Of a DNA stretch of 64,000 nucleotides, positions 1,427 through 54,912 are shown in pieces. This DNA comes from Tricharina praecox (lineage: Eukaryota). Made by a program: the position numbers and the translations under genes. Location: assembly GCF_024521635.1 (NCBI RefSeq), contig NW_026250414.1, positions 310,001 to 374,000 of the forward strand, read 5' to 3'. Each line of letters starts with the position of its first letter. Positions within the stretch are counted from its first letter, which is position 1. The notes under the pieces were generated by a model. It was not told where the DNA came from. It saw only the letters and a program-made list of their open reading frames with translations, and did not search any database.

Positions 1427-3388
1427 GGCGGGCAAGAAAGGCTGAGGTTAAAATATTGTTTTTAGGGCGGGGCACTGGGGGGTGGAGACGTGCACGTTTG
1501 GACACGGGAAGACGCGGTCAGGTACTTTCGATACGTACGAGCCTAGTCGATTATTCAGGTACTCTAGAGTGAAGTGCAGATCAGCGCGACCAACGCCTTT
1601 ATGGAGTGGGACTGATCTGTGGAACGTTCGACACCATGTGCTAGGGATGTCGATAGCTGCTAACCACGGCGTTTGCGGATCTCTTTTCTACGGAACCCTT
1701 CACCTTCCGCATCTCGAAAATCGAAAATGGAAATCTTCAGGAGCTTTTCCGGAAACACACTTACTCCCTTCGCTGGCACTGACTGCGAGCCCTAGCAAGG
1801 GAAGGGCATCCCTCGTTTCCTCCCCCATGCTTCACGGATCCTCACTAACAAGAGCTTAGCTAACCGGGGCATGCGTGTGTAACAGCACGTGTGAGCACTG
1901 CGTGTAACGACACTTCTATTCGTCTGCCCGTCTCCTCTAGAGTGGTGTAGATAGACGACGGCAGACAGCACTTCGGTTTCGACAACTGTTCGACGTGCCC
2001 CCTGCTTGCCCTGCCTGCCCCTGCCACGACGACGACGATAGTGACCATCCTTTCGTCCGTCCATTCTCCGGATGGATGAGGAATGTGCTGTGGTGCGTGC
2101 GTGGTCATGAAACAGTCTGCCAGACAATGGGAATTCGGGCTTCGCTGTCGTAGCAGGTGAAGCGCTGAGTATGGATTATCTGGACCTCGACGAGAGAAAT
2201 GCTGTCTGTCTGTCCGTCGCGGTTTGCTTGTTTGCGTGTGTTAGATATTCGGATGTGTTTGGTTGGCTGTTCGTTGTTCCTATTGAAGGTGGCGGCTATA
2301 GGTATCGAAAAAAGTCTTCTCTGCTGGAGAAACAGACGAAGGAGAAGAAGAAGAAGAAAGACACGATGGGAAGCCCATATGGAGAATATGGATGTGCGAA
2401 AGCGTAGAGTTCGTTGTGATTCCTCCGCCCAAACAACACCAAGCAGAAGAGACAGCAGACACGCCTGTCGGGATAACTCTAAAAATTCCATCTTCAGCCC
2501 TTCCATCCCAACGACAACCATCACCACCGACGACGACCACATCCACCGACGACCATCGTCGTCTCTACCCGCCCGCCTCAAAGTGACCCAGCTCCCACCT
2601 TCAATCTCCTCCACCACCTCCTCCTCCTCCTCCACCACCTCCTCCCCCTCCTCCTACCTTTATACCCCACCCGCCTCGCGTTGAGATAACCCCGCCCATC
2701 ACCCACTCCACCACCACCGTCACCGTCATCGTCACCGCCGCTGACTACAAAGAAAACTCGCCAAAAAAAAAAAAGACTCCCTCCCCCCACCGCCGCCGCC
2801 TATTCCCACATAGGTCTACTTGCTTGTTATATCAACTTCTACCGCCACCTCACGCGACCCATTCACTCACTACCTACTCTAGACGACGACGTTACGAAAC
2901 ACCACCCCACTTCATCCGCCCCCATCGAAACCCAATAACCCCGCCCCGCCCTACCCTGCCCTGCCACGACACCCTACGATACCACGGTCTCTCGTCCCGC
3001 CTGCTCGAATTTTCCAACCCGTACACTTGTGATCCGGTTAGGCTTTGTTCCGATCGGGTGGCTTTGTGATTTGGCTTTGGCTTGGATTCCCATCGATTCC
3101 TTCGGCATAGTTACCTCTGCCCTTTACTTTCTTTGAGTCTCGTTCAAATCAATCTGCAACCCAAAATCCTCCCGCGCTTGTCCAACCAGGTTCTCTCAAT
3201 CAAAAGCATCAATTTCGCTTCCAACTGAATTCATATAACTCAACAACCGCACCGCCCCTCCCCCGCTTACTCGCTTTCCTTCGTTCAACTCTCCTTTACA
3301 CACACACATATACACCCACGAACACACGACACTTGGTCCCTCTCTCTCCGATAGATCAGTCGTCCACCTACCCACACGCCGTAACAGC

Positions 3389-5803
3389 ATGCCTGCCGCT
3401 GCCGACACGCCCTCCACCACCACGACGACTACTGTACCACCCACCAAAGCCGCCCGCCGCAAGCCCGCCCGGCTCCTCCGTCGTCGCGCCGGTCACCCAC
3501 ACGAGGAAGACGATGATGCCGAAACAGTAGGATCGGACGACTCCTACAGCGATGATTCCGGTCTGAGCGAGGAAGAAGGGTTCAGTGATTGCGAGAGCGA
3601 CGATGAATTTGAGGATGCATCCGATGGTGAGGGGCGGCAAGCAGCGGTGGAGAAACCGGCGACTAAACAGAGGACGGATACCGATTTGATGATTAATGGG
3701 ATTGCCCCCCACGGGGGCAAGGCTGAGACGGTGGAGTTCGAGGAAATGGGACGCGAGCGAACGGTTGCGAACGGCAAGCGGGTCAGCGTTGAGGTCAGAG
3801 ATAAGGCGCCTGCGACTACAGGGCAGGTTAAGCCTCAACCGGAGAAAGAAGAGGAAGAAGAAGAAACGGTGGATGGGGAGGTGGAAGAGACGGTGGTGGA
3901 AGAGGTACAGCGACAGGAACCTAAGAAGCACTTGACGCCGTACGAGCGGAGGCAGAGAGAACACGAGGAATACAAAAAGCGGCGCGCCGAGGATCCGAGT
4001 TTTGTGCCCAATCGAGGCCGGTTCTTCATGCATGACTCCCGCGACAACGCCGGCGGTAATGGGTTCCGGCCTTTCGGTCCTGGCGGTAAAGGGAGGGGCG
4101 GTCGCTTCGGGAACAGAGAGTTCCAACCGCACCATCAAGCGCCACCACCGCCCGAGCTCGCCGGCGAATGGCTTCACGACATGCACGAGCAGATTGAGAC
4201 TCAGGTTGAGCAGCAGCAACAACAGAGGCCTGCTCCAGCTTCGGCGCAATCTCATCAACAGCAGCAAAATCAAGGTCACAACAACAATAACAACTTTGCT
4301 GCCGGTCGTCAGCGAGCTCCGGATCAACCTAGGAGCTTTGGTCGGACTTTGCACAAAGGGACTGTGCAGATTCAGGTCAATCTGCCCGGTATGAAGGCGC
4401 CGATCACATTCAGCGAGGTTCCATGCAAAGTTTACACCCGCCTGCCGTTCCACCGCCCGCCGCTTCGCCGAGACAAGCCCGTTAGAATCGCACTTCCGGA
4501 GAGTCCTGTTCGTTACATCTACCCGAATGTGCAACGGTCGTTCATCTTCATTCCACGGGCGATGCGGCCGGGCGGGTCGGGATATATCAGAGGTGCTGCT
4601 GGCAGGGGACGGGGTGGCTATTCACAAGGTGGCCGAAGTTTCTACGGCGGCGGGTCGACCATCTATTCGCCTTCCGTTGATATGTCGAGGCGGTCATCAC
4701 TGGTATACGATACGCGCCACCACACGCCGGCACAGGCCATGCACCCGTCCATACCACCACAGCAAGCCCACGTAGAAGATGGACAGACCAGGACAGTGGT
4801 CGAAGGTGAGGATGCGGTAGGCAAGCCAGTTGTCAGGCTTCCAAACTCTATTCCGTCGGTCTCTGGTGCTCCAGCACAGTCATCCAGCCAGGCAGGTCAC
4901 GCACCGACTCCCAGGCTTGCAACTCAGCAACCGCCGCCCTCTTACACTCCTTCGTACACTCCTGCGATGATTCCGGCTCCATATCGCGAAGCTCGTGCTA
5001 CGCCGAAGATTCCGATGTATCAACCTCGGCCCCAAAAGGCTGTCAATGTAGCCGAAATAGACTCACCGGCGGTCATGCACTTTCCCAGCAACTACAGTGG
5101 CGGCATTTACACCGATCATGTGCCTTCCGGGACTCCTGTGATGGCACCAAACGGATACCCGCAACACCCGCAGCACCCACAGCAGCACCCGCAAAACCCG
5201 CAGAATCTCCAACAGCCCCAGCACATGCAACAACATAATCGGCACCCATCATATACGTCACAGGCACCCGGGACTCCACTATCGCAAATTCCGGAGGCTG
5301 TCCATGCAAGACCTTTCCAGCCCAACCCCTACCCGCAGCAGCAGCAACCCTACTATCAGCAGTACCCTCCTCCACACGCACCGCAGCAGAATCCTATGCC
5401 CCATCCTCAGCATGCTCCGATGCAGCCACATCATGGGGTCTTCCACCCTCCGCCACCACCATACGTCGCCGGTCCATCGCCCATGCCCAACGGACCAACA
5501 AACCACTACATCCCTCAGTCAATGCAGCCACACCAACCGCCGCCGCCACTTCAGCAGGTTCCAGGACCGGCTCCGCCTGGGCCATCCGGGCCAACGACGA
5601 TCGCCCAGGAGAGCAACGGAATGGTTTACTATTCGACGTGGGATCCCAATACCACGTACTATCAGTACCCACCGGCCCCTGGTCCGACCTACGCCGATGC
5701 GCCCGTCATGACGATGACGCCAGGACCAGATGGCCAGGGGCAAAATGTGGGTGGGACGATGTACTACTACCCGCCACAGGCAGCGGGGTATTACCCATCG
5801 TAG
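3389..5803 (+). CDS. CASC3/Barentsz (Btz) domain protein, exon-junction-complex component
   Basis: 804-aa ORF. Segment YKKRRAEDPSFVPNRGRFFMHDSRD...GEWLHDMHE resembles the Btz/SELOR eIF4AIII-binding domain. Acidic N-terminus, RGG motifs and a P/Q-rich C-terminus. Confidence 0.8.
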   Translation: MPAAADTPSTTTTTTVPPTKAARRKPARLLRRRAGHPHEEDDDAETVGSDDSYSDDSGLSEEEGFSDCESDDEFEDASDGEGRQAAVEKPATKQRTDTDLMINGIAPHGGKAETVEFEEMGRERTVANGKRVSVEVRDKAPATTGQVKPQPEKEEEEEETVDGEVEETVVEEVQRQEPKKHLTPYERRQREHEEYKKRRAEDPSFVPNRGRFFMHDSRDNAGGNGFRPFGPGGKGRGGRFGNREFQPHHQAPPPPELAGEWLHDMHEQIETQVEQQQQQRPAPASAQSHQQQQNQGHNNNNNFAAGRQRAPDQPRSFGRTLHKGTVQIQVNLPGMKAPITFSEVPCKVYTRLPFHRPPLRRDKPVRIALPESPVRYIYPNVQRSFIFIPRAMRPGGSGYIRGAAGRGRGGYSQGGRSFYGGGSTIYSPSVDMSRRSSLVYDTRHHTPAQAMHPSIPPQQAHVEDGQTRTVVEGEDAVGKPVVRLPNSIPSVSGAPAQSSSQAGHAPTPRLATQQPPPSYTPSYTPAMIPAPYREARATPKIPMYQPRPQKAVNVAEIDSPAVMHFPSNYSGGIYTDHVPSGTPVMAPNGYPQHPQHPQQHPQNPQNLQQPQHMQQHNRHPSYTSQAPGTPLSQIPEAVHARPFQPNPYPQQQQPYYQQYPPPHAPQQNPMPHPQHAPMQPHHGVFHPPPPPYVAGPSPMPNGPTNHYIPQSMQPHQPPPPLQQVPGPAPPGPSGPTTIAQESNGMVYYSTWDPNTTYYQYPPAPGPTYADAPVMTMTPGPDGQGQNVGGTMYYYPPQAAGYYPS

Positions 5804-15491: not shown

Positions 15492-18051
15492 TTATTTTTC
15501 GTAACCCACCCCCACGTTCCATCCTCCTTCCTGCCTTGTCGGCGACGGCTGCTCGTAAGGTCCATGCGACCGCTGGGATGGCGAAGGGCTGGGGCCTCTG
15601 CTAGGTGCCCGCATTCCTCCGGGTGTGAGTAATGGCACTCCAGTGCTCTGTGGAGCCTGCTGGCCATACGGATTCCGCGAGCCATCCTGACCGTTCGATG
15701 GGAAGAACGGCACAGATGTATCGACCGGAGAACGGGGAACTTCGTAGCTGCTCGGTGCGCGCGAGTTGGCCGTGGATGGTGGCAATGGAACATGGCTCGC
15801 GCTGTGGTACGATTGTCGGGTGTGGTCGAAAGAATCGCGGTCGTCTTCGAGATCGCGGGACTTGTGGTCACCACGAGCCGTAGCTCCAAGCGCATCCAAT
15901 TCGGTGGAGCCGGTCATCTGTGAGCTGGATTTGATGAAGGAGCCCCTGTCGTCTCGCATTGGCTGGTATCGGATATCAGGGTTCTTGGAGATGAGGGCGT
16001 AGACGGAGGATACGAGGACGAGGATGAGAAGGACGAGAGCGAAAGCGGCATTCATGACAAAAAAAATCACTCCCATAACACCGGTGACTATTTCCTGCGG
16101 GAACGTTAGTAGGCGCTTCACCACCACCGACCGGCGAAGGGGGTCATCGACTTACTGCAGCATTAAAGATTCCGGTAAACACCAGCAAAAAGATGACATT
16201 CAAAAAGTTGATCACACAAATCGAAATGTTGAAAATATTGGTCCTCTTGTCCATCCATGGGCGCATCATGCAGACGGCGATCAGATAGGCGAGTTCGATG
16301 AAGAGCAGTGCAAAGGCTTGCACGGTGCCGGCTGTCTGGCCGAAGGCAATGAACATCGCCTTAACCAGATAGTAGAACAGAAGCGGTACGATGAAGTAGT
16401 AGGCCGAGGCTCGGAACTGAACATAAAGGAAGCCCCATCGGTTCAATGCAGCGGGGTCCGAGTACAAGATGTATGCCGGATTTTTGTGCAAGGAAACCGA
16501 GCGCCGAGCGATGCGAATAACCTTCCAGGAAGCCCAACCCAAGATCCCCATCATCGAAAGGAAGAAGAAGACGGCCAGAACCATTGCTCCAGCAGAGTCG
16601 CTCTGGGTAAGTTCCCAGAGACAGAGAATCGCCATCTGGGGGAAACCAATAAGAACCTAGGTCGATGGAGTCAGCAACGTCGCCCCTCGGCAAGCGGAGT
16701 ATACAAGTTTACAACATACCAGTCGGTACATGATTCCCTTCAAAACCGTCAACCACCCGTTCCTGAAATCCTGGAACTTGGTGCCTCGGATCCACTTCAT
16801 CTTGATCGCCAATTCACAGAAGCCTTTGAACGCGCACACACCCAACGCGGTAGCAGCCAGGAAAACACCGAAGAACACCAGCCCCGTAATAAAAAAGTTT
16901 GTGATTTCAATCTTAGCCTTGAACGAGACCCTCTCAATTCCAGAGACAACGACAACGCTCGCCTGAGCAGTAGCCGTATTGTCGTTGTTAGATCTCGAAT
17001 AGAGCTCTGCTGATCGGCGGACTATCGAATTCACGGTACTCCGTTTGTCGAGGCGGGTTTCGGCGAATCCGTACATCGCGGCTCGACTCATCATGTACGG
17101 CATGTCGCTTCCAACATCTACGGATCTCTTCGCGATCTGCACCGAGACTTCGGTCAAACGGTTGAGCAAGTTCGCCGGAGTTCCTCCGGTGGCTTGGATG
17201 TACCAGTGGAAGATATCCTGCGTGAAGCCGATCTCCAGGATTCCCATCGCCCAGTCGAAGTTTTGGGTCCACGCAGAGACGATCGGCGGAAGCTTGACGG
17301 CAGTCATACCAATCATGGCCTGGGCCTGGAAATATCCAAATAGCGAGCACGCATTCGCAGCGACGTGCGCGGCAGTGTTGGAGTGACCGAGACCCGAGGT
17401 GACGGCTGATGCGACGAGTCCTAAGCCCGCGATGACGGCGGTAACCCATCCGACTCCGTGTTGATCGACGGTTTTGCCGTTACTAAGAGGCGCCTCCACG
17501 CAGGCCACCTTACGCCCCAAATCGACGCTGGTGACTTCGATCCTGGCAATACCGTCGAGATCTGGAACCTGGTAGGTGATGCCTTTACAAATCCAACGCA
17601 ATCAGTCAGGGCTAGCACGCGGATATTCGGAGCTCTCTCTCGCCGACATACCAGGAATTGAGTTCTCAACACCGTCGCCGACCGTGAGGTGCGAATTAAG
17701 GGTGATGACACCGGTCGACATAGGGCACATTCCCTCGAACCCCTCCATGCCGCAAGGATCCAGATCTCTTTCCATCGCCTTGTAGCCATAAGCTATGATG
17801 GACAATTTCGCCGTGACATTTCCAGACAACGAAGAGATTCCATTGACCCTAATCATGAGAGTACCACTATCAGGGGTATACGTGATATTGAACAGAGTCG
17901 CTACGAAGAGTGAATCATCCATACACGGGTTCAAGGAGGTCGACTGGATGATGCGCTCGGCCGCGACATGTTGGGAGCTGAATATTGTGGCCGCGAACAG
18001 GAATGGTATTAAGCGGCGCAAAAAGTATGTTGTTGATAGTGAATGAAGCAT
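15492..18051 (-). CDS. FLC/Pkd2-family TRP-like membrane protein (flavin carrier family)
   Basis: Signal peptide plus ML-like TRP_N domain (LDPC...CP), LSNGKTV, GLGHSNTAAHVAAN and multi-TM region (LNRWGFLYVQFRA, RPWMDKRTN). Four exons spread over ORFs 17602-18051, 16657-17601, 16144-16635 and 15492-16127. Confidence 0.9.
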
Positions 18052-20215
18052 GCTGAACGAGCGACAGAAGGTGAGAAGTGGGGGTCGGGGGGACTATCCC
18101 CAGTAGGCGATTAAACGTAAGTAGCCGTTGTGAGAGTTTTTGAAGGAACCCTTTCTCGTTTCTGGGGTATTGGGGGGTGGGTGGGTTGAGTACGGGGGCG
18201 GTCAGGAGGTTGTTCGTTGGGCGGGCGAGGTGAACGAGAGGTGGGTGGGGCTAGCTGTAGTTGTATGTATTTGGGCGTAGCAACGGGAGGTTGGTTGGGT
18301 TTCGGTCGAAAAGAGCGGCAGGCTGGATCGAGCGTCGAAGGCAACCGAAGGGGAGAAAACGAATGATGACGAAAGTAACAATCAAAGAGCGTGGTAGTCT
18401 ATGTATGTAGATCTGGGAGCGATGATGGTGGAGAGGGAGCAGCGGTTGGGGGGTCAGCTGGATTACTGCTGCAGCAACAAAACCAGGCCTTTCGTCAGTC
18501 AAGTCTTTTTTTTCCCTTTCCTTCAAGGAGTGGATTCGTCGAGAGTTGGCGGGTTGTTTTTTTTGTTTGGGAGGAGACAGGGGCTAGCTGGGCTGCAGGT
18601 CAGGCGAAGAGATGGCTGGATCCAGGTAGGTTACGGTGGTTGGAGTGAATAGGGAGGTCGTGGAGGTGGTGATGTAGAGTATAACAAAGTAGTATGCAAG
18701 CGGAGTTGTAAGCACCTTCAGAGAATTGAATCGGAGGGGGAAGGGTAGAGAGAAGAATCGTAATAATGGAATGATAAAAAGAATGGCAACAATAACAATA
18801 ATGACAGAGCGAAGGCGCGACCCTGCGGCGATGTGGTTGGAGGTGGAGGTGAATAAGTGGAGGGGAGGGGGGGATGGGTTGTGCGAACGGGGAACCAAAA
18901 CCTCTTCAACTCGAGGCGAAGGAAGAAGCTGTTGGGTTTTGGAGTGGAAACCCGTTGTATGTATCGAAGAATAGGGTGATGGGGGGTGGAGAGGGGGGTG
19001 GTATTATCGAGACTGGGGGGAGGGCGATCAGGGGGGATGGAGGGTTGTGGCGGCCGGAATGGGGGATGGGCGCCTGTGCTTCTTCTTGGTATTCGTACTC
19101 TCCAGTCTCCAGTCTCTCGGCCCAACGAGCTGTGTAGGAAGAAGCCGGATAGACGCTGGTGAAGAAGATGGAGCAGATGGTCCTGGGAATCTCCGGGTGA
19201 TCACGGTCTGCCAGAGTACAGACACTCTACATACGAGTAACCATGTGTGTCGATCGATGGACACATCGTGTAGGTATCATACATAGTACTCAGATATCTG
19301 CGTTCCGCTGTCGACGGCGACAACGTAACGCCTCGATTCCGGTGTGTCCCCCGGATTCCTCAGGATGCGCCGCACGGAACGGCTGGTTGAGCTCGAATTC
19401 GAAGCATCCAAGCCCGGTAGTCGAGCTCGTCGTGGCCCTCAAGACTCCAGTGTCGCAAGCTACTATAGTATGTATACTATAGCAGCTGCACAGCCCGCCT
19501 GCATGTGCTTGGGAGCTTGCGACGCACCCACAAGGGGATGATGATGTTGATGATGATGGTTACCGTGCTGCCAATGCAACGCAACGGATGGATCATCGTG
19601 ATACATCATCACGCTTCGTTTCGGCTAATAATTGCACATTCAAAACTACCAAGGAACTTTGAAACCACCCACACCCAGTTGCTCACTTGACCAGAGCCCA
19701 GTGCAGCGAATCAGATGCCTCACCGCGGGATGGAGGCCGAGAATAGGTAAGATTGCCGCCACCGCCAGAGAGAAGCAACCCATGGCCGCCATCTGCGTGC
19801 AGCGCCAGGAGAAGGATATAGAGCAAGTGGTTATCAAGTCGGTGAAGGAGACACTCGAGAGACGGAGATAGGGAGGGAGGGAGGGCAGAAGGGCATGAGG
19901 ACAAGAGGGAAGGAGGAGATGAGGAGATGAGGATGAGGAGGATGGAGGGAGACGGACAGGGAGACAGACAGACAGGCAGGGAGAGAGAAGGAGAGTTGAA
20001 GATGAAATGCGGCCCTTCTTCATCTTACCGGTTGGTGTGTACTATATACAGAATGCATCCACTCCACATAGAGTAGAGAGTAGAGTAGAATACATATGGA
20101 CCTCGAAGCATCGTGCAGAACTCATGTGCGGAAACATCCATTCCCCAGATCTGTCAGATCTAGCCGTGACGGAGATGGAGGCGGCTCCCCCTTGGCGCTT
20201 TTGGCCGCTCAGATG

Positions 20216-20224
20216 TTAGGGTTA
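20216..20224 (+). promoter_or_regulatory. Telo-box-like TTAGGGTTA upstream of the HAS1-like/snoRNA host gene
   Basis: Motif lies ~215 nt before the ATG and resembles Tbf1-type sites. It is short and could be chance. Confidence 0.3.
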
Positions 20225-20437
20225 TAGATAGTGCATATGCTGTGTGAGCTAAGAGGTTGCGAAGAAACTTTGCAGGATTTTTTTCTTTCTTACGCGCTTC
20301 ATCTTTCATCCCACCACTCCCCGCAACATCCACCACCACCACCAAACAGCCACCACCACCAAACAGCCACCACCACAACCCACTATTTCATCACCTGCTT
20401 CCTCCCACACCTCTATCATCACATCATCATCATCATC

Positions 20438-22360
20438 ATGTCACTGGCCTTTGGCTCTAATGCTACATCATCCAAGAAGCGAAGAATACAGGACCCACAG
20501 TCACCCCACTCCAGCAAGCCCCGCACAGTGCAGAAGAAATCCACAGGCTCTCCAGCGGTGGCGAATGAAAATGCGTCGACAACACGAGATGCCTCGTCTC
20601 AGGTGAAAAGTTTCCAGGAATTGATCCTCTCCAGCACACTCCAAAAGGCCGTTTCCGATCTGGAACTCTCGGAATTGTCACCACTGCAGTCTCGGGCCAT
20701 CCCTGCACTGCTTGATGGGAAAGATGTAAGCCGATCCGCTCCCGTCTCACTCACCGGGTTCTGACGCTCCTAGGTTGCTGCTGTAGCACAGGCCGGACGG
20801 GATACTATGCTTTCTTTCTTGGTTCCTGCCGTGGCTTTGCTGGAAAAACACCGTTTTCATACCCGACATGGTACTGGAGTGCTTATCGTGACGCCTGACC
20901 GCGAAACCGCCGTTCAGATATCTGGACTAGCTTCGGAACTGCTTGCTGGCACTTCGCATACCGTCGGGATGGTCATTGAGGGCGCCAACCGCGGTGCCGA
21001 AGAGCAGAAATTGGACAGAGGCGTCAACCTGTTGGTTGCCACGCCAGCGAGATTACTCGAGCACATGCGTGATGTGACTTCATTCGTGTACAAGAACATG
21101 AAGGCGTTCTTCGTGTACGGAGCAGATTCGCTCGTCGAGCAGGGGATGCAGAAGCAAGTGCGAGAAATAATCTCACTCATTCCCAAGAAGGGCCGTACAT
21201 CTGGAGTTTTTGGGACGGAGAGGACGGACGGGGTTGAGGGTCTCGTCGAGCTTATTTGCCGTCCCGAAGCAGTTAAAATCACGTCGACGACAGGCACATC
21301 AACCGATGCGAATGCATCTACTGCCCAGACCCAGGGTTACGTTATTGTTGAGGCTGATAAACGATTCCTGTTGCTTTACTCGTTTCTGAAGAAATTTCAG
21401 AGAAAGAGGATGGTTGTGTTTGTCTCGTCGACGTCTGGTGTGCTGTTCTGTGAGGAAGCGTTTGGTTCCTTCGATTTGCCGGTCCATGCCATCCATGGAA
21501 GGCAGAATGCGAAGTCACGGGCGGCTGCCTTCTCTGGTTTCCTGAACGATGCTGAGGGCACTCTTATATGCACAGAGGAGGCAGTCCAAGGACTTGATGT
21601 ACGTTTTTCTTCACTTCAGCGCTCTCCTGATCGCCGTGTTTCTGACATTACTCCAGGTTCCATCTGCAGATTGGGTCATCCAGTACGATCCGCCGCGATC
21701 CATCAGAGACTTTATTCACCGGCGGGGGACAGTTCAAGGTCGACCGGTTGCCTTCGTTCTACCCAGCGAAAGCGGCTTCATCGATAGTCTTAAAACTGCG
21801 GGCATTGTGGTCGAGGAATTTGACTTCCCCAAGAATAAGCTCATCAATATCCAGAGTCAGCTCGAGAAGTTGGTGTCGAAAAACTTCGAGCTTCACACAT
21901 TAGCAAAGGGAGGATTCAGGTTAGTCACATCCCTCGCTTCCCCCATGCGTACCCACCTAGCACACATTTTTCCTATGATGAGAATCTATGGTCCGTGTTG
22001 TTGATTGCGGCTTAAGACCCCGCGTGTCATGAAATGAAACCCATTGAATTTAATTCACCTCTGAGTCTATCTTTTTTTTGCCATTACATTTTCCCTCGCA
22101 TCGCTTCTTTGGTACAGCGACTAACGTCGCATCGCATGTGCAGGGCATTCCTTCAAGACTACAACCACCACCCCGACAGCAAAATATTCCCCGTCACAGC
22201 CCTCGACGTGCGGAAAGTCGGAAAAAGCTTTGGGTTTGACACACCGCCCCGAGTCGAAGTGAAAGTGGAAGAGAAGGTGGTCGTGGATAAGAACAAGCGG
22301 ATATATGGGCCCGAAAAGCCCAAGGCCGGCAAGAAACGCAAGGCGTCAGTCGTAGCTTAA
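20438..22360 (+). CDS. HAS1/DDX18-like DEAD-box protein with degenerate catalytic motifs (pseudo-helicase), 530 aa
   Basis: Exons 20438-20725, 20774-21598, 21657-21919, 22144-22360 total 1593 nt in frame. Has1-like signatures DKRFLLLYSFLKK, NIQSQLEKL and KSFGFDTPPRV are retained, while motifs I, II, III, V and VI are altered. Confidence 0.88.
21972..22067 (+). ncRNA. U18: Box C/D snoRNA, U18/snR18 family, intronic
   Basis: Box C ATGATGA 21975-21981. Guide TGGTCCGTGTT 21989-21999 is complementary to the conserved LSU rRNA segment AACACGGACCA. D' TTGA 22001-22004, C'-like ATGAAATGA 22029-22037, box D CTGA 22061-22064. Lies inside a 224-nt intron. Confidence 0.85.
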
Positions 22361-24068
22361 GATTTCGTGCACTGGACTGGGCTGTGCAATGCTGTAATGA
22401 AGATATCCCGAATGATTATTTGATAACCGAGATTCCCATCGTGTGTGCGTGCTGGGCATCTGTGTGTGTGAATACGAACAACCATCATATGTACATGGCC
22501 AACGCTCCGCTTTAACTAGACAGATATGCAAGGGAGGATCTGCACAGACATTACCTTGATCTTGGGTATCCTCCGTTCCCCGCGCTCCGTCCGTACCTGC
22601 ATATGTGTGTATTTATGCTCCATCTCACTCCATCCCCATCCAGATCGAACCCCTACGAATCGGGAAGGCACGAGCCTTGTCCACCTTCTCCATCCTATTA
22701 ATCGGCGATGACGAATCGCACCCCCCGACCGACCGGATATCCGCGTACCCGTGGGGTCTTCTTCGTTTCGTTTCGGTGGGTTTGGTGGGTGGGTTTGGTA
22801 GGTTTGGTTGCTCCGCCTCGTCCGTCGCATTGACCTTCGGTTCTGGGATGCCACGCATGAGAGGGTTGCGCGGCCCGGGATCGGCGCGCTGCCGAAGGGG
22901 GGTTAGGTAAGCCTTGCCTTGCCTTATTTTTTGGGGTTTTGGTTTTTCGAAAAGAAAAGAAATGAATAAATGAACAAGGCAGCATTACATTCTGCCTTGC
23001 TACTACGGTATATAATAGATCATCGCAGTTACTAGATGAGCCAGCTAAAACGGGACGGGATTGGACGGGACGGGCAAGCAAGGCGAGTGATACCGTGGTG
23101 ACTGAGCCCAGAGTAATCGGAGGTTTTCGAAGACGGGCAGTTATCGGAAGAACCGACCGGAAAGGAACACGTACGTGAGCTATATATACTTCATGCTACT
23201 CTATAGCGACAACGACCGGCGGAGATCGGCCGCCCTCCGGCTCTATGTACTCCAGGTGGATCGGAGTTACTCTACGGACCGACGTGTCGTGTGGAGGCGT
23301 CAGCTTTCCCGTTGTTCTTCTTGTTCTTGTCAATCTTCTTCCCGACCATTGGCCTCTGAGGGGCGAGACTGATATGCGTGATAGGTACGAGTGCGGTGGC
23401 TCTAGATCTAGATGTAGATCGGGAAACACCGACGACTATACATACCTCTTAGTAAGTAGCTCCCCCGCGCTTCTGAAGCTGGATTTGGCTGCAGGGATTA
23501 AGCGGGAGGGGGGTTATGTTGGGTCAACGCAGCACCTAGGAGCTGCAGCCGTCGAAGGGAGAGGAATTGCTGCCGGTTTGTACGGAATTGAACGGATATA
23601 GCGATGGAAGCGAGACTCGTACGTCCCCCCCGGCCCCCCTGAGTTCTTGGGTCCTTCCCTGGTTCCCATCGTCCCACTTACCGAGCCGATTTTCGGTGCT
23701 GCGCCCGGCTTCAGGGCCTTGTAGTGTAACCAGTTACGGTACCTATCCTGTTGAACAGTGTCCGTAAACATTGAGCTCTAACTAATAGGTAGTGCAGTTG
23801 GTATCGGAGATTCGGCTTACCTGGCTGGTTGGAATATTGCGGACGGAGTTCGGGTTGTCAGTTCTAAGCAGTGCGATTGGGGCCGAACTTTCGGCCCTCT
23901 GCACGGAAGCAAGAGTGCCGTAGATTGCCGCCGTCGAGTACCTACGGTATGTTCTCCCTCAGCGCACCGCATGTACCGTACTTGTGGCATGCAATCCCTG
24001 GTTTGGCAGTTGGTCATTCCGTCCAGTTCCAATCGGCAACCGAACCAGTTCGCCACATAGTTCAATTT

Positions 24069-25808: not shown

Positions 25809-28263
25809 ATGTCTGCTGGCAGTTCAAGTCGAGCTGAGGGCTTCGGTGGTGGTGGTAGTGGTGGTGGTGGTGGTGGTGGTGGCGGTGGCGGCGGACATCG
25901 AGCCTCAGCCAGTTCGGGTTCCGAAAGCAGCTCTGAATTTGAACATATCTACAATAGTAATCCCTTCCATGGATCTAGGCTTGATCACCCGCTGACAGCT
26001 GTGCGTCATATGTAGGTCCCCAATCAGCGTCCTGGAGCACCGATGGTATAGAGTCGCTCGGCAGCACCGAACAAGCCCAGATTCTCAGCATCATCGATGG
26101 CATCCGCGATAGCAACGTCTCCAAAGAGATCGATTTCCCACGCCTGGTCGTGTGTGGCGACCAATCTTCCGGCAAGTCCTCGGTGCTGCAGGCCATCGCC
26201 GGAATCCCCTTCCCACACAGCAGTGACCAATGCACCCGCTTCGCAACCGAAGTGATCCTGAAGCGGTCATCCTTCGTGGGTGTTACAGTCAGCATCAAGT
26301 CCTACAACACCAAGGAGACCACCGTCTTCAAGACAAAGAGAGACTTGACCTCGGTAGACGACCTTTCGGAAGTCATCAGGAAGGCCGGCGATAAGATGGA
26401 GCGTACCGGCGCCTTCTCGAAGGATATCCTGCAGATCGAGATATCCGACCCCACGAAGAAACCGCTGATTCTGGTCGATCTTCCGGGATTGATCCACAAT
26501 GGTCCGGACGAGGCCGTTGTGGTTGGAATGGTTGAGGATTACATGAAGAATACGCGCACTGTCATCCTGGCAGTGGTGACGGCTGGAGGCGATCCGGACC
26601 CGCAGGCGGTTCTCAAGTTGGCCAAGATCCACGACCCCGAAGGCCGGCGGACGTTTGGAATCATTACCAAGCCCGACAAGAGCGACGGGAATACCAACCT
26701 ACAAAGAAGGCTCATCGGTATGGCGAAGAACTTGGACAAGAATTTCAAGTTCGATCTGGGGTGGCATGTGCTTATGAACGGCGCCGCAAACGACGGAGAG
26801 CAGCAGCTCGACTTGGAAAAACGAGCGAAAGAAGAGAAGAGGTTTTTCGAAGCCGGGCCATGGTCTGGTGTCCCGAAAGGCAATTGCTGCATCGGACCCC
26901 TTCGCCAACGGCTAAGCACCATGCTGCTCGACCATGTGAAGCAGGAGTTGAAGGGGATCAAAGGGGACATCAGCGCGGCCATTGCGAGATGCCAAAAGGA
27001 GCGCGCCGATATGGGAGAGTTACATCAAGACCTTCCCTCAAAACGGAATTTTCTCGTCGAGACCGGGAAGAAGTACCACAAGATCTGCAACCAGGCGATT
27101 ACGGGTCTCTATACCACTTCACGTTTCTTCGGGACAGGATTCTCGAGCAACCCTGAAGATGATGCGCTTTACCTGAGGGGTAGGATAAAGAATCTCAACG
27201 TCGCTTTCGCCTACACCTTCTGGAAGTATGGCCACCACAAGGAAATCGAGGACTGCAGCTTGATCCCACAGGGCCTGATAGACACCGACGAGTCAACCGA
27301 CCATTTCGATGATTGCCGGGTGGAGCCTGACGAGATCACACGGAAGTACGCGGTCGTTGACTGGGTTAAGCCCGTTGCAAAGAAATCCCGGGGAGTCGAA
27401 ATCGTCGACGGACGCAATCCCACCCTCGTCAAATTCCTATTCTGCGAGCAATCGCAGAAATGGGAAACACTAGCTTACCGCCATCTCGACGAATGCTCCG
27501 CCGCATGCCGGAAGTTCCTGCGACTCGTCCTCGAAGCGGTTGTGCCCGAAGCACGGGAGGAGATCCGGGATTCTCTGCACGATTGGATCGACAGGAAGCT
27601 GGAAAGGAGGGTCGCCGATGCCAAGCGGGAGATGGCGAGCATCATTGCCGACTGCCGCGACTGCTTTCCCATCGTGAATAACTACCAGTATTACGATGAG
27701 GTGGGCATTGCACGAGTGAAACGCGCAGGAAATGGAAGCGCCCGGCAAACCATCACCAGCCTGAGGCACACCTTGGGCTCCGTTGTGGGACTTCCCACGC
27801 AGGCCGAATTGGTGAGCGGGCTTACGGAGGTGATAGGTTCACTCGACGGAGACGCCGAGGAAGTACATGAAGATCCCGAGGATCAACGGTGCGAGGCTTC
27901 GTTGGATGAGATGCTGGCATACTACAAGGTGGGACATCATCCCTCCGTCTCCAGGGGCATACCACTGATATCAAGTCTAGACCGCAAGCAGACGCTTCGT
28001 GGATGACGTTGTTGTTCAGGTTATCGAGCGCAAACTGGTGGCCGAGTTGGACGAAACCTTTTCTGCCTACGAAGCTGCGGTTATGACAGACGAGGAGGTT
28101 GCCAACATCGTCCAGGAGTCGCCGTATAAACAACAGAAGATCAACGAGCTGAATGTCAGACTGAAGAGTCTCGAGAGGGCTGCTGACGCTTGTAGACGGT
28201 ACTCGAGATGGTATGTCCATCCCAACCTTGGCATAGTTTGAGCAGTTACTGACAGATGCTAGA
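25809..28263 (+). CDS. Dynamin-superfamily (Mx-like) GTPase with C-terminal GED
   Basis: G1 GDQSSGKSS, G2 CTRF, G3 DLPG, G4 TKPD and LGWHVL. Poly-Gly first exon from ATG 25809. Introns ~25957-26014, 27929-27980, 28211-28262. GED-like RFVDDVVVQVIERKL. Confidence 0.88.
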
Positions 28264-31152: not shown

Positions 31153-34100
31153 CTAAGTATTGGCGCCGCTGGCAGAGGTTCCCAACTGAGCAGTCCTCGC
31201 CTTCTCCTTGCGAATAGCTCCCTTCCGGCCGCGAACAACCTTCTTGGCAAGATCGACCAGCTCTTTAGCTTCGGTGCTCTCTCTCAAACTCTCCAACATC
31301 AAGTTGAGCTGCGTCTCCGACGCCATGTGCGGGCAACGTTTGGTAAAGTGCGCAGTCTTGCAGAACGGGCACAGCTCGACTCCGCTCTGCTTGAACGAGC
31401 AGGTGCCCGGTGCGTGGTGGTGGTGGCAGGCGCGGCAACAAGGGAATTTGGGGTTGTCCGTTGGCGGGATTATGGTGGCTCGTTGGAATTGCGAAGGGTG
31501 GTTTTCGGGAACGGGAGGCGCCAGTGGAAACATCGTTTGCATGGTGCCCGAGAGGGGCAGAGCATTCTGGTACATAGACCTATTGAGAGCCATAAGAGGA
31601 GGCAGGTAGGTGTAGGGCACAGGAGCATTTGGAGCCATGTGGGGAGGCATGGTGTGATTCGGAGGAGCCATTGAAGCCATATGAGGAGGCGGGTAGGTGT
31701 AGAGCACAGGAGCATTGGGAGCCATGTGGGGAGGCATAGTGTGATTCGGAGGAGCCATTGAAGCCATATGAGGAGGCGGGTATGGGTATGGCACAGTAGC
31801 ATTGGGAGGCATATGGGTAGGCATGGTGTGATTCGGAGGAGCCATTGAAGCCATATGAGGAGGCGGGTATGGATATGGCACAGTAGCATTGGGAGGCATA
31901 TGGGTAGGCATGGTGTGATTCGGAGGAACCATTGAAGCCATGTGAGCCACGGGAGTCATAGACGACGGCTTTCTGCGACCATTGCCGACGCCGGCTATCA
32001 TCAAATCGTGTTTATCCACATCCTCATGGCCACTCTGCGAGTCGTCCGATTCTTGAGCTTTATCGTCGGTATGGAAGTCGGTGTCATTATCGTCGTCGTC
32101 CGCATTTCCATCTTCAATTGCGTACTTGGCAACGGTCTTACGACGGCGGCCCCTTCCTAACTCCTCTTGCTTCGCGGCTGCCTCTTTATTCGCAATCTCT
32201 TCACGTTCCTTCACGATCCGATCCCAGAATGCCACTTCTACCGTATCGTCGTTTCCGGATTCCATTGCAAAGTCGGTTTCTTCGAGAGTGCCCTTCTCAT
32301 TCGCCCACACTCTTGCAAAGCTGAACGTACCGCCGGCATTATCCTCTGCAGCCTTAGTTTCTTCGATCTGAGATCGATCAAGCAGTTTGTCGACACTTTC
32401 GTTGTCGTACTTGATGGCCCGGTCGTCATTATCGTCTTCGAAAAGACGCTTCGCACCGAAGGCGAGAATGCTTTCCACGTCAAAGGCGTCTAGCTCCCCA
32501 CTCTCGTCGTCACCCATTCTCTCAATGATCAAGTGGTCAAGAGACTTCTTCTTCTTGCCCACCTGCATGATCTTTTCCTCGACGGTGTCTCGCGTCATCA
32601 GGTGGAAGACAAGCACCTTATGCTTCTGCCCGATTCTGTGTGCTCGCGAGAGGGCTTGCATGTCTGAATGCGGGTTGTGATCCGGATCCAGAATGATGAC
32701 CGTGTCCGCTGTTGCCAAGTTGATGCCGACACCACCAGCTCTGGTGGACAATAGAAAAGCGAAGTAGTCAGAGTCAGGAGCGTTAAACTCATCAATGGCC
32801 TTCTGCTTGTTTAGACTGCTGACATTGCCATCCAGTCGGTACCACTTAAGTCCCAGTGCAACCAGAAAATCCTCCATCACATCAAGCATTCCCAGGAATT
32901 GGGAGAAAATCAAGACACGATGTCCTCGTTCCTTGAGTTTCGGCAGCATGATATTCAAAAGCCCGAGCTTCGACCCAGCCTCCACCAAGTTCCGATGGAT
33001 GAGTTCATTAGAGTCATCCTCGTTGATCTCCTCTATAGCTCTACTATAGACGAATGGATGGCAGACGCACTTCCGAAGCTGCATTAGCAAGTTGCGGACC
33101 CCCCCTTTCTCGCTCTTGCCGAGCTTGCCGTCACGCGAAAGAAGGGAACGAATCATCTTTGCGTCCTTCTCGAGGATTGACTTGTATAGACTCTTCTGCA
33201 AAGCAGTCATAGAGATAGGTACAATGACCTCAGCCATGGGCGGAAGATCGGTAAGCACTTGCGCCTTCGTACGCCTCAGAAAGTACGGCCTGCTCTTATC
33301 AATACATGGTTTCTCTGCAGGAAGTAGTTTAGACTGACCGGATGAGAGTATGCAGCTTCGGGACATTCTCGACCGTTGGAATCCCGAATTCGTCCTCCAA
33401 TCCTTGGGCGTTCATATCCTTCGGATTGAGGAATTGCAGCATGTTGAACAGCTCCCTCGGATTGTTCTGCAAGGGCGTCCCAGAAAGAAGTACCTTGTGC
33501 GTGTTGGTATACTTCATTAGCTCGACATGGAGCTGGGCCTTTTCGTTCTTTAGACATTGTCCCTCATCCACAATTAGAGCCTGCCATGGAATTTTTCGCA
33601 GCATTGTAGCATCGGAGACGGGGGTCGTGTAAGACGTCACGACGATGTGGCACTTCAATTTTCCATCCTGTCCAAACATTTCATATTGGCGCTTTGGGAG
33701 GAATCAGCGATGATCTTGAACGACGGATGAGCCTATTACTTACCGCATGTTTGCGACCAACTTCAGTCCCGTAGTAGGCCACTACCCGAAGGGAAGGGGC
33801 CCAAGTCCGAATCTCTCGTTTCCTACACTTGGATTAGATATCGCTGAAACCCAATGATTGGGTGTCGACGACGAAGACAAACCAGTTCGGCACAGTCGAC
33901 TGCGGGGCGACCACCAAGAAAGGCCAGATTTTATGCTCTTCAAACAAAACAGACAAGAACGAAATGATCTGAATGGTCTTTCCCAGTCCCATTTCATCTG
34001 CCAAAATCACATTCTGTCCGGCCCACCATTTGTAGTAGAGCCAACTACACTGCGTCAGTTCAAGTTCAAAATTAGGTCGATGGATACTCACTTCATGCCC

Positions 34101-36301
34101 TCCTTCTGGTAGTCCATCAAAGTACCGCCTTTTATGTACCTGGGCTGTCCGGCCAGTTCAAGCGTGTCGAATGGGGAGCGACGGGCCTTTTCAATCTTCT
34201 TGACCAGATTGTGGGCCGGGCGTACATACAACCCATGCACGTAGTCGTAGTAGGCAGACTTCCAATCAGCCCACCTATCCCCATCAGATTCCAAGGGCGG
34301 GCTGTCCCAAACGACTTCGTCATACCCGAGACCCTTATATTTAATAAGGGCCTTAGCGACCTCCCTCACCCGAGCCAGGTCCACATTGACGTCCTTCCCA
34401 ACAGGAACGTAGCTAGTGTATTCTAGCCTGAGAATTATCTCCACCCGCAACCATGACTCGTCGATGGCTTTCTCCTGGCTCAGGATGGCATACGGATTAT
34501 TCTTCAAAAATCCGAGTCGGCGATAAGGGAAGGCACCAGTCAGCCACGGGCCAGGAACCCATTTCACATGGAAATAGGACTGCCCGTCGAACTTGACTAA
34601 GTACTCCCGCTCATCTTCAGTGAAATCAGCGAGACTGAGTGCACGCTCGTCCCACGCGGCAGGATCAATCGGACGCCAAGCGGTGATCTTGTCTATCTTG
34701 CCTGGTGCTCTTACGCAGTCCAGGCATGTGAACGCTGCGTAGTTGGTCGAGTCCCGCTCTGGAAGATGGTCGTAATGCCATGCTCGAGAACATCCTTGAC
34801 AACGAAACAATACGTTCCCGGGAGCATAAAGACCCTTATCAGGAACGTCGATGTCAGGTGACAATGCTCTTCCATCTTGCGCCTTTATTTTGGCCTCGCT
34901 TAATGGCTTGAAAGGTTCACACGAGTCTCCTTGAGCCCCACAATCTGTGCACCGATCCCACGACGCTTGGAGATGATCCTTCAGCTTCGGCCTTCCTATG
35001 CAGCGCTTGCACTGAAGCACAAAATTGGTGCTGGACACCTTGGTAACAAGATGCTCACGCGCATTTCGCAGTCCAATGCAGGCTTTGTGGTAGGAAGCCG
35101 AGCAGCCCTGACAAAAGATCAAGTGGCCTTGTTTATCCGAGGGACCCGACTTTTGGCAAGTCTCACAATGTAGATTATGAACCTGGACGAACTCGTCATC
35201 GTCAGGAAAAATCGGAAATATCTCTTTCGAACGTGTGAGTTTTGGTTTCGGGGGAGCTTTGGGTTGTGGCTCTTCGGTGTACTCGTATTCGTCTTCCGGG
35301 ACCGGCTCAGCGTAGTTTTGGTGACGCCGGGTTCTACCCGACCGTCTCGCTTGTTCGTCCTCGCTACGGTGATACTCCGATTCATCGCTCACCTCTTTTG
35401 CCTTTCCATTCGATTTTCTGGCCGACCTGCGCTGCGACTTTTTACGCGGAAGATCAATGATATTATCGTCGTCGTCCGACTGCGGGCCTCTCTTGAAAGA
35501 GAGCATCGAGGGCCCTTCCTTTAGTCCCTTCGACCGTGTAGCGCGCCCTCCATCGTCCTGCTCTACTATGGCTTTCTCTTTTGTCGTCTCCTTCAGAGTA
35601 GCTAACCGCCTTGTTCCCCGAAGTTTGAGGAGATTTCGCTGGCGTTGTGCTCGCTCAGGAGGAGGGCGTGACAACCAATCTTCCTCCGCCTCTGTACCTC
35701 CGGTTGTAGAATGGTCGTAATCTAATTGGGCTTCACCCTCCGGTTCATCTTCATCTTCGTCGTCATCGTGTTTGCCGCTTAGAAAGTCATTGAGAGCTTT
35801 TTTTCCGTTATCGAGAGAGGCGAGGCGTTCGAAAGACAGCTGGAAGCACTATTTAGCGACAGCCCACACTCCCGACACCTAAATCCCAAGGATAGAAATC
35901 ACTGAAAGTCTTACTTCGGCCTCTTTGCCGTTCTCGAAGCGCACCCAGTACCGGAGTGAGTAGTCATTTGCTCTGATCTCTCGGGTGACCCGAACAAGCT
36001 TTGAGTCTTCTAGATCATCGCCATCGCTCCCCGTGTCCTCGTCGCCTTCACTCTCCGCCTTGTTTCTGTCATCATCCGAGCCTTCTACAAGCTTCTCGTA
36101 TTCGTTTGGGTGAGCTCCCTTGCCCGACAACGTGGGAGGAATGATGCTCACAAGCATCTGTCGTTTGGGCAATCCAGTTGTCTGGATGCTTGTCTCAGCA
36201 GAAGAAGAGTGAACACTCACGCCGCGCTCCGGTACATCGACCTCCATCATGTCGACCTCATCAACTTCCGAGTAGCCCGCTCCGCAATCCGAGTCATCCA
36301 T
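31153..36301 (-). CDS. CHD/Mi-2-type SNF2 chromatin remodeler (Mit1-like)
   Basis: PHD-like fingers (CETC...CQGC..SYH..C), chromo-like regions, [47 protein letters not shown] and a C-terminal Cys/His cluster. Multi-exon; start codon uncertain. Confidence 0.88.
31598..31945 (-). repeat. 87-bp coding tandem repeat x4 ([29 protein letters not shown])
   Basis: Equivalent positions at 31676, 31763, 31850 and 31937. Confidence 0.93.
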
Positions 36302-52865: not shown

Positions 52866-54006
52866 GATCCTTTGTTGTTGTGGTTGGGTTTTTTGGTCGG
52901 TGGTGGGGTGGATGGAGGGGTGTTGAGGATTGCAACTATTTTGCCTCTTTTCTCTGCGTTTCCTTGTCCCGATGAAGACTCGCGTGGATGAAAAAAGTGT
53001 GTCACATCGCTTTTTTGGCGCGTGCGAGATGGCACAGATTTGCATCATGATGTCAATTAGACCCACAAACTCAATTTCGTCCCTGACCCTTCTGGAGCCC
53101 CTTGGCAACGAGTTCTGCTCTCCAACGACATTTTCAACATCTGGTCTACCACCCGGCGAAGCGCTAACTAATAACGAACTGCCGCAGCCGTCCACCACAA
53201 CAACCTTACTGAGCACGAGGGCATCCTCCGTAAGCCGCATTGACACGCCCTGCGCCGTTACCAGCGCACACCACAGCTTCCCGACGTTGCTCCGGTCCCT
53301 GGCTAACGTGCATCATCGCGATGGGCTGATACTTCATCCCCATCGAACTAGTCTCCGGCATCCAGCCCTCGAATCGCTGTCGACGAGTCAAATGAGTTCG
53401 TCCACGCGAACACCTCACCGCCATTCGCTCGCAAGACAGAAATCCCGTTGGCTTCCGCGGCTACAGCCATAAACGCCAATACCACCAGCGGAAACACGCA
53501 AGGAATATCAGATACCACCAGCATCAGTGTGATAATCTGCGCCGTGGTAGTCTGTAACGATATAGAACTCCAATATTGCTGGCCATTTCTGGTGCGATCG
53601 CAAAAATTAAGATATGAAGTTTGGATGTGAGGCTGGCCGCTCGGAGCGCGTGAATATTCATGCGCCGTGAGGTAGAGACCGAGGCGCAACCGTAGATGCC
53701 GTTGCCGCCTAGGACAGTGCGGGTAAATAGGAATTTGTGAGGGAATATGCATGAGCAAGGCGTGGTAGTTTTTATCCAGACACTCCCGGAGGCGGAGCAG
53801 TAGTGAGGAGTTTAGCTACAGCCACGGCGAAGCTTGATCCCATGCTCGAGTGACATTTATGGAACACGCATAACCGCTAGTCACTCATACAGTGGCCAGG
53901 GGCCTTCATCCAAGATCCCTTATCGTGTTCCCCGCATTCCTCCCCACTAGGTCTATACACACGCGTATCCCTCACAGAACCGTGAAAATCACCGCAACCG
54001 CCCAAA

Positions 54007-54764
54007 ATGTCAACGACAATAGACCTCTACCATCCCTCTCACGATGAGCAAATCAGCGTACTCTTCTGCTGTTTGGGGAACATCTGCCGTAACTACCCTC
54101 CTGATTCCCAAAAAACCCACACCTACTGACTACACGTGCAGGCTCCCCCATGGCCGAAGCCGCATTCCGCGACACCGTCGAAAAGCTAGGATACGCAGAC
54201 CGCTTCTCACGTATCGACAGCTGCGGCACGGCCGGATACCACGTTGGCGCCGAGCCGGATCACCGTATGAACTCCCTCCTCCTCCTGCTGCTTCCCCAAC
54301 GGGTCACGGCCGGTTGATATATGGACGAAGGCACGATTGAGATGCTTCGGAAAAATGGGATTACTACGGACCATTGTGCGCGGCAGGTCGCTCAGAAGGA
54401 TTTTAAGAACTTTGATTATATCCTCGCTATGGATGTGGGTTCCCCCTGCCCTATTGGTGGTGTCTACTATGGGTCGGTGGCTAATGAATGGTGGTGCTCC
54501 AGACGTCGAATTTAAGTAATCTCAAGCGGATTGAGCCCAAGAGTGGGAAGGCGAAGGGTATGTTATACTATCTAATGGTGTGGGAAGGCAGGACTGACTT
54601 GTGCAGTCATGCTGTTTGGATACTTCGACGGAAACAAAAGGAAGGAAATCGTTGAGGATCCGTATTACGGTGGAAACTCGGGGTTCACAGAGAACTTTGC
54701 TCAGGTGGTGAGGTTTTCGAAGAACTTTGTGAGGGAGGTGTTGCAGGTTGAAATACCAGAATAA
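54007..54764 (+). CDS. LTP1: Low-molecular-weight protein tyrosine phosphatase
   Basis: Spliced P-loop VLFCCLGNIC|RSPMAEA, IDSCGTAGYHVG, FDYILAMD and EDPYYGG. Five exons. Confidence 0.92.
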
Positions 54765-54912
54765 CAGATGAGGGGGTCGTATTGGATGGCAGTGGCAGCG
54801 ATGATTCCCTTTCTGTAATGTATCACACCGGCTAGAGTGGATTCTATACGCCTTTCTTCTTTTTGTGATGATATGTTACATGATGCCCCCACCACCGACC
54901 ATCCGCGTTCGT

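Follow-up and report, generated by a model that had tools for sequence, protein, structure and literature searches.

A Has1/DDX18-derived gene with degenerate ATP-handling motifs in Tricharina praecox and related Pezizales, a probable retained pseudo-helicase paralog

The DEAD-box helicase known as Has1 in yeast and DDX18 in human belongs to the 90S and nucleolar pre-60S particles, and its functions fall into an ATP-dependent and an ATP-independent part. In yeast, binding of Has1 to pre-60S particles does not depend on ATP, and this binding suffices for trimming of 27SA3 and for incorporation of L17; ATP-binding mutants of has1 are inviable, mainly through an effect on 18S production, and the K92A mutant is dominant negative on overexpression (PMC3763536). 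Roles of Has1 in U14 release and in domain I assembly are also described (PMC6300602). The single validated case of a DEAD-box pseudohelicase in ribosome biogenesis is Utp25/Def of the small-subunit (SSU) processome, which is ancient, pan-eukaryotic and essential, and has no close active twin (PMC9539457). Here we analyze a gene at positions 20438-22360 of the forward (+) strand of a 64,000-nucleotide stretch of the fungus Tricharina praecox, the whole of which we call the window. We show that this gene is an intact, spliced member of a Has1/DDX18-derived family found across the Pezizales, and we read it, with a probability of roughly 0.75, as a retained Has1 pseudo-helicase paralog, most likely docking on pre-ribosomes without ATP.

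Canonical Has1/DDX18 is the nearest family to the window protein, at 42-43% identity, and the two agree in domain order, including the CTE_SPB4 domain, in fold (as seen in a model of the Pyronema ortholog P0271), and in two intron positions that the window gene has in common with Pezizales HAS1 genes. They differ in that motifs I, II, III, V and VI of the window protein are degenerate, in that its N-terminal extension is short and its evolution about ten times faster, and in that the family is present in addition to the canonical copy in the two species where both are visible. With Utp25 the family has in common a DEAD-box fold whose motifs are degenerate or dispensable, and by analogy it may also act as a non-catalytic scaffold (PMC9539457); unlike Utp25, it is restricted to one lineage, is a recent copy of an active helicase that is still present, and has a function that is so far putative. 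The yeast has1 mutants Q69A and K92A, which keep pre-60S association and 27SA3 processing (PMC3763536), resemble the window protein in that it, too, is predicted to be ATP-blind. However, these mutants are point changes in a sole, essential gene and are inviable alone, whereas the natural paralog is changed at hundreds of positions, and therefore docking equal to that of the yeast mutants cannot be assumed.

An earlier note, made from the letters of this stretch, had proposed a catalytically dead Has1 paralog encoded by a spliced open reading frame of 530 amino acids (aa) without stops or frameshifts, colinear with Has1/DDX18 through to its C-terminal domain, and the gene model agrees with it on each of these points. 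The four joined exons amount to 1593 nucleotides (nt), i.e., 530 codons and a stop, with no internal stop codon, and they are separated by three GT..AG introns on the + strand. Exon 1 (20438-20725, +; aa 1-96) encodes a basic KKRR near the N-terminus (20474-20485) and the Q-motif glutamine, Q84 (20687-20689), and is followed by intron 1 (20726-20773, +; 48 nt, beginning GTAAGC, phase 0), which lies directly 5′ of the former P-loop. Exon 2 (20774-21598, +; aa 97-371) encodes RecA-like domain 1 and the beginning of domain 2, up to intron 2 (21599-21656, +; 58 nt, GTACGT, phase 0), located after GLD. Exon 3 (21657-21919, +; aa 372-459) completes domain 2 and begins the C-terminal extension, and intron 3 (21920-22143, +; 224 nt, GTTAGT, phase 2) falls within the Arg codon of GGFR. 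Exon 4 (22144-22360, +; aa 459-530 and the stop) contains CTE_SPB4 at about 22148-22255, FGFDTPPRV, and a basic tail with KKRK (22331-22342). The patches that the note called Has1-specific (DKRFLLLYSFLKK, NIQSQLEKL and FGFDTPPRV) are all present, as is the basic tail, with the N-terminus likewise basic.

Profile searches recognized both RecA-like domains of the DEAD-box superfamily in the window protein, in the same order, DEAD, Helicase_C and CTE_SPB4, as in Has1/DDX18. Pfam DEAD (PF00270) matches exon 2 with an E-value of 1.7e-12 (47.8 bits, cut-off 26), and CTE_SPB4, the C-terminal extension of the Spb4/Has1 type, matches exon 4 with an E-value of 2.5e-8. Helicase_C (PF00271) gives 23.4 bits on exon 2, where the cut-off is 23.5, and a further weak piece of 18.1 bits on exon 3, and these matches are low and split because intron 2 divides the domain between the two exons.

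We compared the motifs in an alignment of 29 canonical Has1/DDX18 rows with 12 rows of the degenerate kind (dead-type rows), and every motif change that the earlier note had listed (Walker A, Ia, II, III, V and VI) is present in the sequence. Motif I (Walker A) survives as AQAGRDTM (20786-20809, +), without GK(T/S), at a place where all 29 canonical rows have GSGKT and none of the five dead rows covering the P-loop does. Motif II reads YGAD (21116-21127, +) in place of DEAD, which is found in 29 of 29 canonical and 0 of 12 dead-type rows, with Tyr at the first position in 11 of these 12, and motif III reads GTE (21212-21220, +) in place of SAT, again with 29 of 29 against 0 of 12. TEEAVQGLD (21572-21598, +) stands for the TDVAARGLD of motif V and HRRGTVQG (21717-21740, +) for the HRVGRTAR of motif VI, both of which are present in all 29 canonical rows, and the motif VI stretch is 6 residues shorter than in canonical Has1. 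Motif Ia (PDRETA; 20894-20911, +) retains the Arg and final Ala of PTRELA (28 of 29 canonical rows), motif Ib (TPARL; 21041-21055, +) retains the T, P and R of TPGRL (29 of 29), and the Q-motif glutamine is retained in 5 of 5 dead rows covering the site. Taking an active enzyme of this class to have intact motifs I (GxGKT), II (DEAD), III (SAT) and VI (HRxGRxxR), the window protein is not one. Since the P-loop Lys and Thr, the acids of motif II and the arginines of motif VI are gone, the protein should neither bind nor hydrolyse ATP, and we infer that it is ATPase-dead. The catalytic residues are thus gone and the fold is kept, as in a pseudoenzyme, with the fold judged on the Pyronema ortholog P0271 (53% identity to the window protein).

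The loss of residues differs in extent between the parts of the protein. We scored retention as the share of dead-row cells with the canonical consensus residue, a measure that describes a set of related sequences and is not a test, and assigned motifs to ATP or RNA binding from general DEAD-box knowledge, following a figure legend (PMC9539457). The ATP-handling motifs (Q, I, II and VI) kept 43 of 123 cells (35%) and SAT (motif III) kept 2 of 36 (6%). In the RNA-binding motifs (Ia, GG, Ib, IV, QxxR and V) 182 of 291 cells were kept (63%), and for the core RNA-contact residues the count was 82 of 117 (70%). The 173 other columns that are at least 90% conserved in canonical rows kept 948 of 1750 cells (54%). 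Invariant across 11 dead rows are the Arg and Ala of Ia, the residues T-P-R of Ib, and the G-x-N that follows the former GG motif, and the Q-x-x-K-x-R of domain 2 is nearly so. Members of the family as a whole lack the P-loop lysine, DEAD, SAT and the arginines of motif VI, and retain the Has1 fold, the C-terminal extension, basic ends and most of the RNA-contact residues in motifs Ia, Ib and QxxR. An AlphaFold2 model of P0271, built from a 44-row alignment, has a mean pLDDT (predicted local distance difference test score) of 84.7, with disorder only at the termini. A Foldseek search of the PDB with this model returned Has1/DDX18 chains as all of the top 18 matches (E 2.6e-46 to 1.1e-29, TM (template modelling) score up to 0.78), from nucleolar pre-60S particles of Chaetomium, yeast, fission yeast and human, followed by Spb4, Dbp10 and other DEAD-box proteins; a PDB sequence search with P0271 gave the same Has1/DDX18 entries first (E 1e-97 to 1e-117).

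Using exon 2 in an exhaustive phmmer search of 1.84 billion representatives, we obtained 12160 matches at E <= 0.001, of which the best 150 were listed and 9 were read. Six of these 9 rows have degenerate motifs (P0121, P0122, P0125, P0126, P0128 and P0194), including the two best matches of all, P0121 at 57% and P0122 at 50% identity, with P0126 at 55%, and the remaining 3 are canonical Has1 proteins at 43-44% identity. Named members of the dead type occur in Ascodesmis nigricans (P0001, 523 aa), Pyronema omphalodes (P0271, 518 aa), Geopyxis carbonaria (P0275) and Trichophaea hybrida (P0276), the last of these 61% identical to the window protein. A half-degenerate form is found in Choiromyces venosus (P0280), where GSGKT is intact, and in an unnamed relative (P0288) that does not cover the P-loop; in both, DDAE has replaced DEAD, SAT has become SAE (as in P0280) or SAD, and the motif VI region has degenerated and become shorter. 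This form from the truffle family could mark a stage of the same decay at which ATP is bound and not hydrolysed. Among 384 further proteins, a motif scan flagged P0131 and P0152, with Tyr at the first DEAD position, and P0150, which is half-degenerate. The four species we looked up fall in four Pezizales families (Ascodesmidaceae, Pyronemataceae, Tarzettaceae and Tuberaceae), with Pyronema presumably in the Pyronemataceae, and each family row that was read has an open frame. The searches for named members scored the 8000 candidates with the most words in common and gave patchy lists, which cannot bound the distribution of the family. Public records label these proteins generically, as 'P-loop NTP hydrolase' or 'DDX18/HAS1', and therefore they may be miscounted as active helicases.

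Outside the Pezizales, we also observed Has1/DDX18-like proteins in which several ATPase motifs are degenerate, in the yeast Nadsonia fulvescens, in two chytrids of the genus Phlyctochytrium, in the wasp Leptopilina boulardi (one 'pitchoune'-like), in the ciliate Blepharisma stoltei and in the sedge Rhynchospora breviuscula (rows P0156, P0166, P0203, P0185, P0174 and P0233). These may be independent dead copies or annotation artefacts, and they hint that the splitting of Has1 into an active and a dead form could have happened repeatedly.

In two named species the family stands beside a canonical Has1. A metagenome scan with the family profile identified 14 loci, among them two that carry a family member (L001 and L002) and two that carry canonical Has1 genes (L003 and L004), of which L004 is 96.6% identical to Has1 of Terfezia claveryi, and L003 has its best named match, at 82%, in Geopyxis. 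Among the 120 rows listed for the profile of L003 and L004, canonical Has1 with all motifs intact is present in Geopyxis carbonaria (P0328), Choiromyces venosus (P0349), Tuber indicum, Terfezia claveryi and Kalaharituber pfeilii. G. carbonaria and C. venosus thus hold a canonical Has1 and, next to it, a copy that is dead or half-dead, which makes the family paralogous, and in neither species is its member the single canonical Has1 orthologue of the genome. By extension from these relatives, T. praecox is likely to have a canonical HAS1 gene as well.

A careful phylogenetic analysis of 29 rows and 560 columns (LG+C20 PMSF), rooted on DDX18 of lamprey, flax and Gonium, supports the dead clade at 100/99, and the dead and half-dead sequences together at 100/99. 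The grouping of these with six canonical Pezizales rows, to the exclusion of every other Has1, has a support of 89/89 and appears in 90% of bootstrap trees. The dead and half-dead groups are shortened in the same motif VI loop, and half-dead rows share 4 of the 9 positions at which the dead clade has become fixed for a different residue. The window protein thus belongs to the Has1/DDX18 lineage: its best matches are Has1/DDX18, it nests with Pezizales Has1, and it contains CTE_SPB4. A quick tree on two Drs1-like outgroups placed the root on the stem of the dead clade, which we took as long-branch attraction, and it was re-rooted on animal and plant DDX18; a quick Drs1-rooted tree without the canonical Pezizales rows nested the dead clade in the Pezizomycotina Has1 group.

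The introns point in the same direction as the careful tree. Canonical L003 and L004 both have an intron at the identical position and phase as intron 2 of the window gene, and L003 also has one at the identical position and phase as intron 3 (phase 2, splitting the codon that follows G-[FY]); these canonical introns lie at approximately L003:3811-3874 and 4157-4215 and L004:3829-3890. Other canonical loci of Pezizomycotina, e.g., L008, have no intron at either place and have others instead. Intron 1 has the same position in the orthologous locus L001 and is absent from canonical L003. From the tree position and the common intron positions together, we conclude with moderate confidence that HAS1 probably underwent a DNA-level duplication within the Pezizomycetes that preceded the split of the four families.

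The ortholog in metagenome locus L001 allowed us to examine selection. Its open frame, likewise of 530 aa, has introns at the same three places and in the same phases. The two proteins share 62% identity over 521 aligned codons, and the ortholog lies in a syntenic region, since L001:56-1353 is colinear with 16702-18021 of the window, where tblastx pieces of 71-85% identity follow a minus-strand frame; this upstream neighbour gene (16702-18021, -) is conserved beside the L001 ortholog and is separate from the Has1-like gene. At the nucleotide level, identity falls from 0.818 at second and 0.716 at first codon positions to 0.44 at third positions. The ratio of nonsynonymous to synonymous divergence (dN/dS) is 0.272/2.03 = 0.13 by NG86 and 0.294/1.61 = 0.18 by YN00, values that are not reliable point estimates because dS is saturated (11.5 by maximum likelihood). 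When we simulated random substitution, the frame remained open in 1 of 5000 copies at 17% of sites changed and in 0 at 34%, so that chance does not account for a frame that is open at such divergence. The dN/dS and the simulated loss of the frame therefore identify a protein-coding frame under purifying selection, and the family is retained under such selection notwithstanding its evolution at roughly ten times the rate of the canonical copy. The second family locus, L002, is 99.9% identical to L001 and was set aside as an uninformative comparison for selection.

Contig alignments from 4 of the 8 sequencing runs listed for the stretch (X1-X4) were examined for splicing. In X2, X3 and X4, which come from three studies, one contig each (2176, 2178 and 1571 letters) spans the gene and lacks each of the three introns, with joints at 20725>20774, 21598>21657 and 21916>22141 (the last equivalent to 21919>22144 when the cut is moved by +3), which match the predicted GT..AG introns. 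Contigs of X1, a soil-metagenome DNA run, read through introns 1 and 3. The presence of an intron-less form beside the intron-containing genomic form therefore has as its simplest reading that the gene is transcribed and spliced as predicted, a call that uses the intron-less contigs and not the run labels, the contigs giving no expression levels. The runs differ from one another in three places (R123H, L148L and S415S), a number too small for a polymorphism test. In X2 and X3 the spliced contigs also extend at least 440 nt beyond the stop (22361-22800), and about 118 letters more past 22800; this continuation is either a long 3′ untranslated region or an overlap with a neighbouring transcript, and minus-strand open reading frames lie beneath it at 22516-23195.

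The earlier note had favoured a retained pseudoenzyme over random decay and had named orthologs, selection and splicing as the places to look, and our results support it: the same motif loss is present in at least four named Pezizales species, in the syntenic metagenome locus and in further database proteins, dN/dS against L001 is below 1, with third positions saturated, and the three predicted introns are absent from the contigs of three runs. The canonical HAS1 for which it also proposed to look is present in G. carbonaria and C. venosus; for the window organism the 64-kb window was covered, and it holds no second Has1-like locus. With the RNA-contact residues, the C-terminal extension and the basic termini kept, the simplest reading is an ATP-independent binder of Has1 sites, and docking of yeast Has1 without ATP, together with the dominant-negative ATP-binding mutant, makes ATP-independent docking the most likely mode. 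Under the pathway we propose, HAS1 would have been duplicated, one copy keeping the essential ATP-dependent work, and the second copy would have lost ATP binding and hydrolysis to become a pseudo-helicase. This protein would dock, independently of ATP, at Has1 sites on nucleolar pre-ribosomes, where it could have a dedicated role as scaffold or placeholder, or could tune ribosome production as a built-in competitor. We give about even odds to a role of the family in ribosome biogenesis. More tentatively, and with doubts that outweigh our confidence, the protein might be a natural 'K92A-like' twin of Has1 that took over the ATP-independent half of the job, or a regulated brake on ribosome assembly, acting for instance in fruiting-body development or after fire.

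Several points weigh against a retained pseudo-helicase that docks on pre-ribosomes. The loss of ATPase activity is deduced from the motifs, the canonical HAS1 of the window organism is deduced from relatives, and the case for selection is drawn from one sequence pair with saturated dS. The kinds of the sequencing runs are guessed ('RNA?' for X2 and X3, 'DNA?' for X4), the cells counted for retention come from related sequences and are not independent events, and the joining of dead and half-dead sequences is a meeting of long branches, of which the tree tool warns. Counted from the duplication node, the branches leading to the window protein add up to about 3.1 changes per column and those leading to canonical Has1 of Geopyxis to about 0.25, and only 54% of otherwise invariant Has1 residues are retained, a poor fit with binding to the same very conserved pre-ribosome surfaces as Has1. 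This speed, together with the loss of nearly half of the invariant residues, means that the family may have moved to other partners. It could thus have become a neo-functionalised RNA-binding or adaptor protein outside ribosome biogenesis, e.g., for development-specific RNA handling in another ribonucleoprotein. The tenfold rate and the 948 of 1750 retained cells would suit such a change, as would the 9 positions at which the dead clade has settled on a new residue and the reduction to about 55 residues of the long acidic, lysine-rich N-terminal extension found in canonical Pezizales Has1 (P0328 and P0349). We nevertheless consider it unlikely, since the Has1-type C-terminal extension is still present, both termini are basic, the best structural matches are to Has1 within pre-60S particles, and the data point to no particular partner or pathway.

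The remaining alternatives are much less probable than this. That the gene is the sole Has1 of its organism, rapidly diverged after loss of the canonical copy, would agree with the lack of a canonical Has1-like locus in the 64-kb window, but this absence is uninformative on the remaining genome, canonical Has1 coexists with the family in G. carbonaria and C. venosus, and yeast Has1 ATP-binding mutants are inviable (PMC3763536), so that we regard this as very improbable. The loss of all catalytic motifs is also what a decaying duplicate, a young pseudogene that is still open, or a product of repeat-induced point mutation might present. Here, dN/dS, the open frames and the spliced contigs in three runs indicate a selected and expressed gene, not a pseudogene: the frame is open in both the window and L001 at 62% identity and a dN/dS of 0.13-0.18, 1 of 5000 simulated copies is still open at 17% substitution, the transcript is spliced, and members occur in four Pezizales families. 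GC content is ordinary (0.515 for 20001-22000), and repeat-induced point mutation was dropped on this basis and on the lack of stops; we give decay in any of these forms next to no weight. Equally hard to credit is a protein that is still an ATPase by means of non-canonical residues. The retained Q-motif glutamine and its upstream Phe, and the GSGKT of the half-degenerate Tuberaceae form, speak for it, but the P-loop Gly-Lys-Thr, SAT, the arginines of motif VI and, at their canonical positions, both motif II acids are all gone, the replacement residues vary among species, which is unexpected for a new active site, and in yeast K92A alone abolishes ATPase activity (PMC3763536).

A retained, ATP-blind copy beside the active enzyme, present since before four Pezizales families diverged, would amount to a natural separation of the two Has1 roles, for which the earlier separation rests on lethal yeast point mutants (PMC3763536). 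The half-degenerate truffle form would represent an intermediate stage of motif loss, and beside Utp25, so far the single validated case in ribosome biogenesis (PMC9539457), the family would be a second DEAD-box pseudohelicase, of independent origin. We found no description of a degenerate Has1 copy in Pezizomycetes in the limited collection of literature searched. Pyronema and Ascodesmis are tractable species for functional tests of the family.

The surroundings of the gene contain repeats and ordinary fungal genes. Upstream, a purine-rich run of GGAGG/GATGAGG-like units occupies 19860-19990, with a GC skew of 0.33 for 18001-20000, and CCA/CAC and CAT repeats (20290-20437) continue right up to the start codon, 20412-20448 being skipped as a repeat in the contig alignment. 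A long open frame at 3239-5803 (+) contains the eIF4AIII-binding domain of CASC3/Barentsz (Btz, 1.6e-20), a partner of another DEAD-box protein, and no evidence here ties it to the Has1-like gene. Two long open frames at 31153-35848 (-) encode a Mit1-like chromatin remodeller with SNF2, Helicase_C, Mit1 zinc finger, PHD-like and MIT1 chromodomain matches. Other genes in the window encode a dynamin-family GTPase (25985-28006, +), a protein with the substrate-binding domain of SpoU-type RNA methyltransferases (51756-53312, -), a ribosomal L22-domain protein (54701-55936, -) and a phospholipase D (59685-62744, -).

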